64,000 nucleotides of DNA from Escherichia coli (GTDB lineage Bacteria; Pseudomonadota; Gammaproteobacteria; Enterobacterales; Enterobacteriaceae). Under the pieces are notes generated by a model. That model was not told the origin of the DNA and ran no database searches. It saw only the letters and a list, made by a program, of their open reading frames with translations. The position numbers and the translations under genes were made by a program. Of this stretch, positions 36,160-36,275 are shown in pieces. Where the stretch lies: NCBI RefSeq assembly GCF_003334335.1, contig NZ_QOWQ01000004.1; one strand, written 5' to 3'. The first letter of the stretch is position 1. Every line of letters starts with the position of its first letter.

Positions 36160-36275
36160 AAAAGAGTGGCAAAGGACTTGAGAAGGAGCCTCAAATCCCT
36201 TCGCCGGCGTTATCCGGATCAGGTTCGACGGGTATTTTCTCAGCGCACGCGTACGCGTGGCACCCCGTTGAGAAC
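36160..36275 (-). promoter_or_regulatory. TPP (THI-box) riboswitch in the thiBPQ leader
   Basis: Minus strand reads GGGGTGCC...CTGAGAAAATACCCGTCGAACCTGATCCGGATAACGCCGGCGAAGGGA, matching the THI-box consensus; lies 5' of thiB. Confidence 0.85.

Follow-up and report, generated by a model that had tools for sequence, protein, structure and literature searches.

Gram-positive thi-box leaders, such as those of Bacillus tenA and thiC, share the RF00059 aptamer and its ligand with the TPP riboswitches of Escherichia coli and act via intrinsic terminator/antiterminator hairpins. Among the E. coli elements, the thiM TPP riboswitch has a crystal structure (2GDI). The thiM switch resembles that of thiB (tbpA) in belonging to the same aptamer family, in turning translation OFF, in opposing an SD-sequestering to an anti-sequestering/anti-P1 structure and in lacking an intrinsic terminator, and the literature calls thiB thiM-like (PMC8609307, PMC10578472). 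It differs in serving the thiMD biosynthesis/salvage operon rather than import, in the sequence of its expression platform and in a Rho-dependent control that needs at least 34 codons (PMC11487190), whereas an invading strand that is an exact copy of the 5-nt P1 5' strand and a GUG start codon are features of thiB's own. The thiC riboswitch of E. coli also shares the aptamer family and, like thiB, senses the ligand cotranscriptionally within a window defined by pauses and employs an anti-P1 competitor (PMC8609307); thiC, however, is larger and contains determinants of Rho-dependent termination within the riboswitch, whereas control of thiB at the mRNA level is weaker and disputed (PMC11487190). 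The closest described system is the tbpA/thiB riboswitch of E. coli K-12, at the sroA locus (Rodionov 2002; Vogel 2003), an RNA to which three papers are devoted (Chauvier 2021, PMC8609307; Berman 2023, PMC10578472; Grondin 2024, PMC11487190). This riboswitch ties vitamin B1 import to the cellular TPP level, serves as a model for cotranscriptional (kinetic) control of translation and has been proposed as an antibacterial target, none of which is new.

The element described here lies within a 64 kb stretch of E. coli DNA (hereafter, the window), and, with a probability that we put at about 0.96, it is the TPP riboswitch of E. coli thiB (tbpA), which sits in the thiBPQ leader and switches translation OFF. 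When the whole window was scanned against the 4227 families of Rfam 15 at the gathering threshold, a single TPP match was obtained, to RF00059 at 36277..36178 on the minus strand, with 65.9 bits (gathering score, 54.3), E = 1e-10 and coverage of model positions 1-105 of 105. The aptamer and its parts are the following.

36178 to 36277, minus strand: TPP aptamer (THI element), RF00059 match; RefSeq riboswitch feature on the same bases; helices conserved in the 76 listed leaders discussed below
36272-36268 with 36194-36190, minus strand: P1 (CUCAA/UUGAG), from the cmscan alignment
36267-36264 with 36232-36229, minus strand: P2, from the cmscan alignment
36261-36243, minus strand: P3 hairpin, from the cmscan alignment
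36243-36238, minus strand: CUGAGA pyrimidine-sensor junction
36223-36198, minus strand: P4/P5 pyrophosphate-sensor arm

Along this alignment, all helices from P1 to P5 can be drawn on the sequence, with two sensor arms and a three-way junction closed by P1; the minus strand reads ...CGCCGUUCUCAACGGGGUGCCACGCGUACGCGUGCGCUGAGAAAAUACCCGUCGAACCUGAUCCGGAUAACGCCGGCGAAGGGAUUUGAGGCUCCUUCUCAAGUCCUUUGCCACUCUUUUUUGAGGUGCAAAGUGUUAAAA... across the riboswitch. The consensus used for membership was ACCUGAUC..GG.UAA..CC..CG.AGGGA for the pyrophosphate-sensor arm and CUGAGA for the pyrimidine-sensor junction, and the ligand-contact consensus of RF00059 (upper-case positions of the cmscan alignment) is matched throughout by CUGAGA together with ACCUGAUCCGGAUAACGCCGGCGAAGGGA directly downstream of it. 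All the defining features of RF00059 that lend themselves to computational testing are present. The initial annotation, which had claimed a TPP riboswitch upstream of thiBPQ with the THI-box core on the minus strand, is borne out: the Rfam scan that it proposed as a check returned a match above the gathering score in the right place and on the right strand, the thiB, thiP and thiQ genes lie on that same strand, RefSeq annotates a 'TPP riboswitch' on the same bases, and both quoted motifs are exact, CTGAGA at the junction and then ACCTGATCCGGATAACGCCGGCGAAGGGA ending at about 36196. As a positive control, the call is correct: a textbook cis-regulatory RNA was recognised from raw sequence and the right test was proposed. 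A chance, functionless resemblance to a THI box is improbable in the extreme, because an E value of this order was reached over the whole 64 kb window against all 4227 families; the score lies above a curated threshold, the position before thiamine transport genes is conserved across Enterobacterales, and the RNA is nearly invariant in 5399 E. coli genomes.

The aptamer is located in the 5' leader of thiB, on the same strand, with its end 43 nt upstream of the GUG, and the genes around it are arranged as follows.

36311-37966, minus strand: sgrR, the upstream ORF (SgrR match)
35164 to 36147, minus strand: thiB (tbpA), periplasmic thiamine/TPP-binding protein, first regulated gene (TIGR01276 equivalog, 647 bits, cutoff 317; RefSeq)
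33578 to 35188, minus strand: thiP, ABC transporter permease, same operon, overlapping the end of thiB (NF006953, 1189 bits, cutoff 970; RefSeq)
32896 to 33594, minus strand: thiQ, ABC transporter ATPase, last gene of the operon (NF008039, 445 bits, cutoff 298; RefSeq)

Between the end of the sgrR stop codon, at 36311, and the thiB GUG, at 36147-36145, lies an intergenic region of 163 nt. Many E. coli chromosomes in RefSeq match a 901-nt query spanning the site with 100% identity, and such chromosomes carry the 'TPP riboswitch' annotation on the same bases; on one of them, the order of features is leuD, setA, sgrT, sgrR, riboswitch (TPP riboswitch), thiB, thiP, thiQ, yabI and araC. Of 5426 complete E. 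coli genomes, 5399 contain the 158-nt leader with an identity of at least 90%, the annotation being 'riboswitch | thiB' throughout the rows listed, and about 69% of E. coli genomes differ from the present allele by 1-5% over these 158 nt. The positions used in the published mutant studies, namely G35, G121, U130, P1 at nt 5-9 and the linker at nt 95-99, all occur here with the spacing expected. Over these published positions and the RefSeq E. coli genomes, no difference from the K-12 tbpA/thiB riboswitch was detected. Thus, the element is the E. coli tbpA/thiB riboswitch itself and not just a lookalike; it is already known, and there is nothing novel in the window.

Several other elements were encountered along the way. 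In E. coli strain 5444 (NZ_CP103515.1, 3858726-3860403), the 901-nt query matches as two pieces, with IS1A under the match and an additional 'tbpA' CDS annotation in the record, which indicates an IS1 insertion in or beside the sgrR-riboswitch-thiB region. Within the window, divergent from sgrR, lies SgrS (38034-38260, plus strand; full-length RF00534 match, 228.8 bits), an sRNA already known for its part in sugar-phosphate stress and for encoding SgrT as well. The leucine operon leader/attenuator, likewise a known element, was found at 44240-44389 on the minus strand (RF00512, 145.8 bits) and includes a terminator hairpin and a U run. Finally, there are two tandem naRNA4 matches (RF02564) on the minus strand at 27277-27342 and 27362-27427, each with 60.2 bits against a gathering score of 59.5; they are identical in alignment, lie 85 nt apart and look like REP/BIME-type repeats.

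Where, then, does transcription of the leader begin? The candidate signals, all on the minus strand, are listed here.

36305 to 36310, minus strand: putative -35 hexamer TTGCTG, directly after the sgrR stop and 17 nt upstream of the -10, a weak assignment with 3/6 positions matching the consensus
36282 to 36287, minus strand: probable -10 hexamer TACACT of the thiBPQ/SroA promoter, read from the sequence, with a spacing that fits +1 at 36275
36275 to 36276, minus strand: probable transcription start (+1) of the thiB leader and SroA, from published mutant numbering mapped to the sequence

The proposal is based on spacing, conservation of the -10 and published numbering; a consensus promoter scan yielded no sigma-70 site at threshold in 35900-36700. 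A TA[C/G]A[A/C]T hexamer is found at the same offset in 52 of 90 listed Enterobacterales leaders, and most of the others look shifted by one base; the TTGCTG sequence is poorly conserved in other genera. The start most probably falls at 36275 because U130 (the U of GUG), G121 (in the SD) and G35 (in CUGAGA) all fit only there (PMC11487190); the Lucks-lab numbering, in which the P1 5' strand is nt 5-9, gives 36276 (PMC10578472), and 5' RACE in Salmonella placed the start 129 nt upstream of the GTG (PMC3511261). On the minus strand, the terminator scan of 35900-36700 detected nothing terminator-like, neither between the sgrR stop (36311) and the riboswitch nor from there to thiB. With the sgrR stop thus devoid of a downstream terminator and abutted by the putative -35, we infer that sgrR transcripts may read through into the thiB leader.

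From the same start as thiB comes a stable transcript of about 100 nt, known as SroA or sYJ20 (PMC3511261), and this raises the question of whether the leader could be mainly the gene of a trans-acting sRNA (~93-100 nt) with targets unrelated to thiamine, the riboswitch being secondary. In Salmonella, tigecycline and tetracycline induce SroA, and strains lacking it have a subtle survival phenotype that is complemented by a plasmid copy (PMC3511261); however, no SroA target has been validated and no antibiotic induction was seen in E. coli (PMC3511261), a structured leader is expected to yield a short stable RNA as a by-product, this RNA is a canonical TPP aptamer coupled directly to the thiB ribosome-binding site, and the conserved bases are those required by the aptamer and the two competing helices. 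We therefore consider a leader that is primarily an sRNA gene unlikely. It appears similarly doubtful that the stable ~100-nt SroA fragment, in addition to its role in cis, acts in trans on unrelated mRNAs, for instance in antibiotic tolerance as suggested for Salmonella; if it did, the locus would be a dual-function riboswitch and sRNA. The reading of the leader as a cis-acting riboswitch leads to the expression platform, the parts of which are these.

36168 to 36205, minus strand: antisequestering (extended anti-P1) helix of the ON state, GGCGAAGGGAUUUGAGG (36205-36189) with UCUCAAGUCCUUUGCC (36183-36168)
36147 to 36174, minus strand: sequestering hairpin of the OFF state, CUUUGCCACU(C) (36174-36164) with (GA)GGUGCAAAG (36157-36147), U6 loop
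36154 to 36157, minus strand: thiB Shine-Dalgarno GAGG, read from the sequence, 6 nt upstream of the GUG
36145 to 36147, minus strand: thiB GUG start codon (RefSeq CDS start)

The key to the platform is a pair of repeats. CUCAA occurs twice, as the P1 5' strand (36272-36268) and in the linker (36182-36178), and UUGAG(G) also occurs twice, as the P1 3' strand (36194-36189) and at 36159-36154, where it overlaps the SD GAGG (36157-36154); therefore, mutually exclusive helices can form. There are three such pairings, namely P1, the antisequestering helix and the sequestering hairpin. The antisequestering helix comprises about 16 pairs with one bulge and takes up the 3' strands of P5, P4 and P1 along with the 5' arm of the sequestering hairpin, so that by virtue of shared bases it excludes both P1 and the sequestering helix; the sequestering hairpin pairs the GAGG and the first G of GUG. 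These folds were derived from the sequence ahead of the detailed papers and agree with the stems published as sequestering and antisequestering (anti-P1) (PMC8609307, PMC10578472). The extent given in the initial annotation, 36160-36275, is right at one end, where it starts at the inferred transcription start, and takes in the aptamer, the antisequestering stem and the sequestering 5' arm; at the other end it stops 3 nt before the SD and so misses both the SD and the GUG, the switch itself running from about 36275 (+1) to the GUG.

A hairpin together with six consecutive U (36163-36158) in the platform might suggest transcription attenuation of the kind found in Bacillus thi-box leaders, where TPP induces an intrinsic terminator. 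This is very improbable: the six U form the loop of the hairpin rather than following it on the 3' side, the terminator scan found nothing on the minus strand, in which respect the thiB leader departs from the Gram-positive thi-box leaders, and an intrinsic terminator is rejected by single-round in vitro transcription, which gave only full-length product at all TPP concentrations (PMC10578472).

For the translational switch, the following chain of events can be proposed. Transcription would begin at about 36275 to yield a leader of ~128 nt in which the aptamer, P1 to P5, would be made first. Should TPP be bound while the polymerase is still in the leader, P1, P4 and P5 would stay closed, and the closed aptamer would leave CUUUGCCAC(U) free to pair with GGUGCAAAG in a hairpin that buries GAGG and the first G of GUG; with the SD buried, the 30S subunit would not bind and the thiamine importer would not be made. 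The window for sensing would be bracketed by the pauses at +104 and +117, which probably correspond to about 36172 and 36159. Without TPP, the linker CUCAA would invade P1 by pairing with UUGAG, and the invading helix would extend via GGGA and GGCGAA, taking up UCCUUUGCC, whereby the sequestering hairpin would be deprived of its 5' arm and the ribosome-binding site exposed.

With respect to TPP binding, exclusion of the 30S subunit, kinetic control and the effects of mutants, this scheme draws on published work on the same RNA, in which in-line and SHAPE probing, thiB'-'lacZ fusions (including G35C, at 36241) and compensatory stem mutations support the model. Binding of TPP to the thiB RNA has been demonstrated by RNase H and in-line probing and by smFRET, and the binding-site mutants G37C, G35C and G17C, in the numberings of the three papers, no longer respond (PMC8609307, PMC10578472, PMC11487190). 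The sensing window is defined by the pauses, and the anti-P1 helix is supported by anti-P1 mutants (PMC8609307); sensing is efficient only cotranscriptionally, between the +104 and +117 pauses, and depends on the elongation rate (PMC8609307, PMC11487190). Cotranscriptional SHAPE-seq and mutagenesis established the sequestering and antisequestering stems and the requirement for the linker CUCAA (nt 95-99); a longer P1 or antisequestering stem biases the switch towards ON or OFF, the TPP response is lost in a mutant with weakened pairing of the RBS, TPP-dependent repression is seen in sfGFP assays, and in the probing-based models transcripts of intermediate length already form part of the sequestering stem when TPP is absent (PMC10578472). 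Translational lacZ fusions are repressed ~2.3-3.2-fold by TPP, with low expression even without ligand and an overall repression of only ~2-4-fold; toeprints are reported to show loss of 30S binding with TPP, and expression is abolished by G121C in the SD and translation by U130A (GUG to GAG), whereas G35C hits CUGAGA (PMC11487190).

The folding energies do not by themselves reproduce this behavior. The unconstrained MFE structure (ViennaRNA) combines P2, P3, P5, a 10-bp anti-P1 hairpin and the SD hairpin, and the energies of the states are calculated at -36.7 kcal/mol for OFF (aptamer plus sequestering hairpin, the energy of the ligand not being included), -36.2 kcal/mol for ON (long antisequestering helix) and -41.5 kcal/mol for a hybrid of the short anti-P1 helix with the sequestering hairpin. 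In the partition function, the SD bases G124, A125 and G126 of the leader (36157-36155 in the window) have a probability of being unpaired of at most 0.02 whether or not the aptamer is forced, because the apo hybrid outcompetes the ON helix. Accordingly, ligand-dependent exposure of the SD was not reproduced by unconstrained or aptamer-constrained MFE and partition-function folding, the sequestering hairpin being present in both states. In these models, the nearest-neighbour energies count against a simple equilibrium switch, and the ON state is not demonstrated by folding; its support comes from conservation and published probing, not from thermodynamics. The same energies fit a leaky, kinetically controlled switch such as the one published and are not counted against membership.

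Could TPP, besides blocking translation, also lower the amount of thiBPQ mRNA, with the untranslated early part of thiB exposed to Rho-dependent termination or RNase E decay? Such an effect would add a further layer of control and leave the identity of the element unchanged, and we hold it at somewhat under even odds. Since the leader has no intrinsic terminator, any effect at the mRNA level must be factor-dependent. Transcriptional lacZ fusions that include 11-12 thiB codons are repressed ~1.6-3.9-fold by TPP, and the GUG-to-GAG mutant keeps ~2.4-fold repression (PMC11487190); involvement of Rho was proposed earlier (Bastet 2017, as cited in PMC11487190). However, bicyclomycin left TPP repression of a short, 4-codon sfGFP fusion unchanged and only full-length product appeared on in vitro transcription (PMC10578472), the authors themselves left open which factor is responsible (PMC11487190), and our sequence tests identified no rut or RNase E site.

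The translational OFF switch in the thiB leader can be followed further through comparative analysis. GTDB representative genomes were searched with one DNA pattern that combined the P4/P5 core, a gap of 105-135 nt and the ThiB motif YTYD, which returned at least 120 loci; by fixing most of the P4/P5 bases as well as the N-terminal motif of thiB, the pattern biased the set towards Enterobacterales-like leaders. Among the matches listed, there are 91 distinct Enterobacterales leaders with the same platform, and the 76 of these with a short P3 were aligned (MAFFT). Above-threshold TPP matches were also confirmed at one Rhodobacterales locus and one Thermotogae locus. In the 76 listed leaders, 94.8% of alignment cells are paired in the OFF structure, compared with 28-51% in controls slid by 1-3 columns; in the ON helix, the value is 90.8% against 42-57.5%, with the count of unpaired cells inflated by some MAFFT rows, not realigned, that mis-register CUCAA (for example, the ...CACTCAATTC rows). 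By helix, P1 is 99.2% paired, P2, P4 and P5 are 100% paired (for P4 and P5 this is partly imposed, the search pattern having fixed most of their bases), P3 is 84% paired and the sequestering hairpin 92.1%. Hardly any variation is seen across these 76 leaders in the aptamer core, in CUUUGC or in GCAAAGUG; the two platform hairpins, antisequestering and sequestering, have loops of freely varying sequence and length.

Covariation contributes little to this picture. Of the aptamer helices, P3 alone covaries in the 76 listed leaders, the others being invariant, and in the sequestering stem one pair changes from A-U to G-C in 5 sequences; apart from these, there are essentially no two-sided changes. 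For the ON helix, covariation is not significant in the same 76 leaders, with 137 of 500 shuffles reaching the observed score, and when RNAalifold was run de novo on this alignment, P2, P5 and a P4-like helix in the wrong register were all that it found (covariation term, -0.04). The platform helices show next to no covariation, their paired segments being almost constant, and invariance of this kind is as expected where segments must satisfy two pairings. Judged on the aligned sequences, the comparative support thus resides in conserved pairing potential, not in covariation. The start codon is of particular interest in this respect: it is GTG in 75 of the 76 listed leaders, across genera, and its first G makes the closing C-G pair of the sequestering stem in 74 of them, which suggests that the unusual GUG start of thiB reflects a constraint of RNA structure on codon identity.

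The aligned set consists of leaders with a short P3, and a distinct variant interrupts that hairpin. In about 15 of the 91 Enterobacterales thiB leaders among the matches listed, the P3 stem-loop carries an insertion of 70-200 nt (L002:9745-10015, L070:1845-2191, L064, L081, L032, L058, and also L042, L057 and L072; other inserts are found in L034, L046, L110 and L018). In Citrobacter, Pseudocitrobacter, Klebsiella and Kluyvera, the insert is a long imperfect hairpin, of 139 nt and -65 kcal/mol in L002, and in L070 a second element is nested inside it. The Citrobacter-type insert recurs at unrelated positions in L008, L096 and L033 and in two tandem copies in L094, and thus behaves, as far as its distribution indicates, like an ERIC-like mobile repeat; the E. 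coli window contains no copy of it. The three insert loci that were scanned, L002 and L070 (Citrobacter) and L034 (Erwinia), give no TPP match at the Rfam gathering score, with P1, P2, CUGAGA, P4/P5 and the whole expression platform intact in all three. With the core intact and the score below threshold, annotation based on covariance models would miss these riboswitches, and the hairpin inserts in P3 may leave the riboswitch working but unannotated.

A second variant concerns spirochaete thiB-like loci (L021, L023, L024, L035, L045, L056, L069, L077 and L092), in which an ATG follows the aptamer's ...GCGGAGGGA by about 2-6 nt, as exemplified by GGAGGGAAUAAUG and GGAGGGAGUCAUG. With the start codon only a few bases past the aptamer GGAGGGA, the ribosome-binding site appears to lie within the aptamer itself, and the conserved 3' strand of P4 may double as that site in an arrangement with no separate expression platform. 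At L024, from Treponema, the Rfam scan gave no TPP match at the gathering score. Near this thiB-like locus of Treponema vincentii, and unrelated to the riboswitch, the same scan revealed nine TD-2 RNA copies and one TD-1 copy (RF03162 and RF03155) at 3237-5145 and 10888-11113, spread over ~8 kb.
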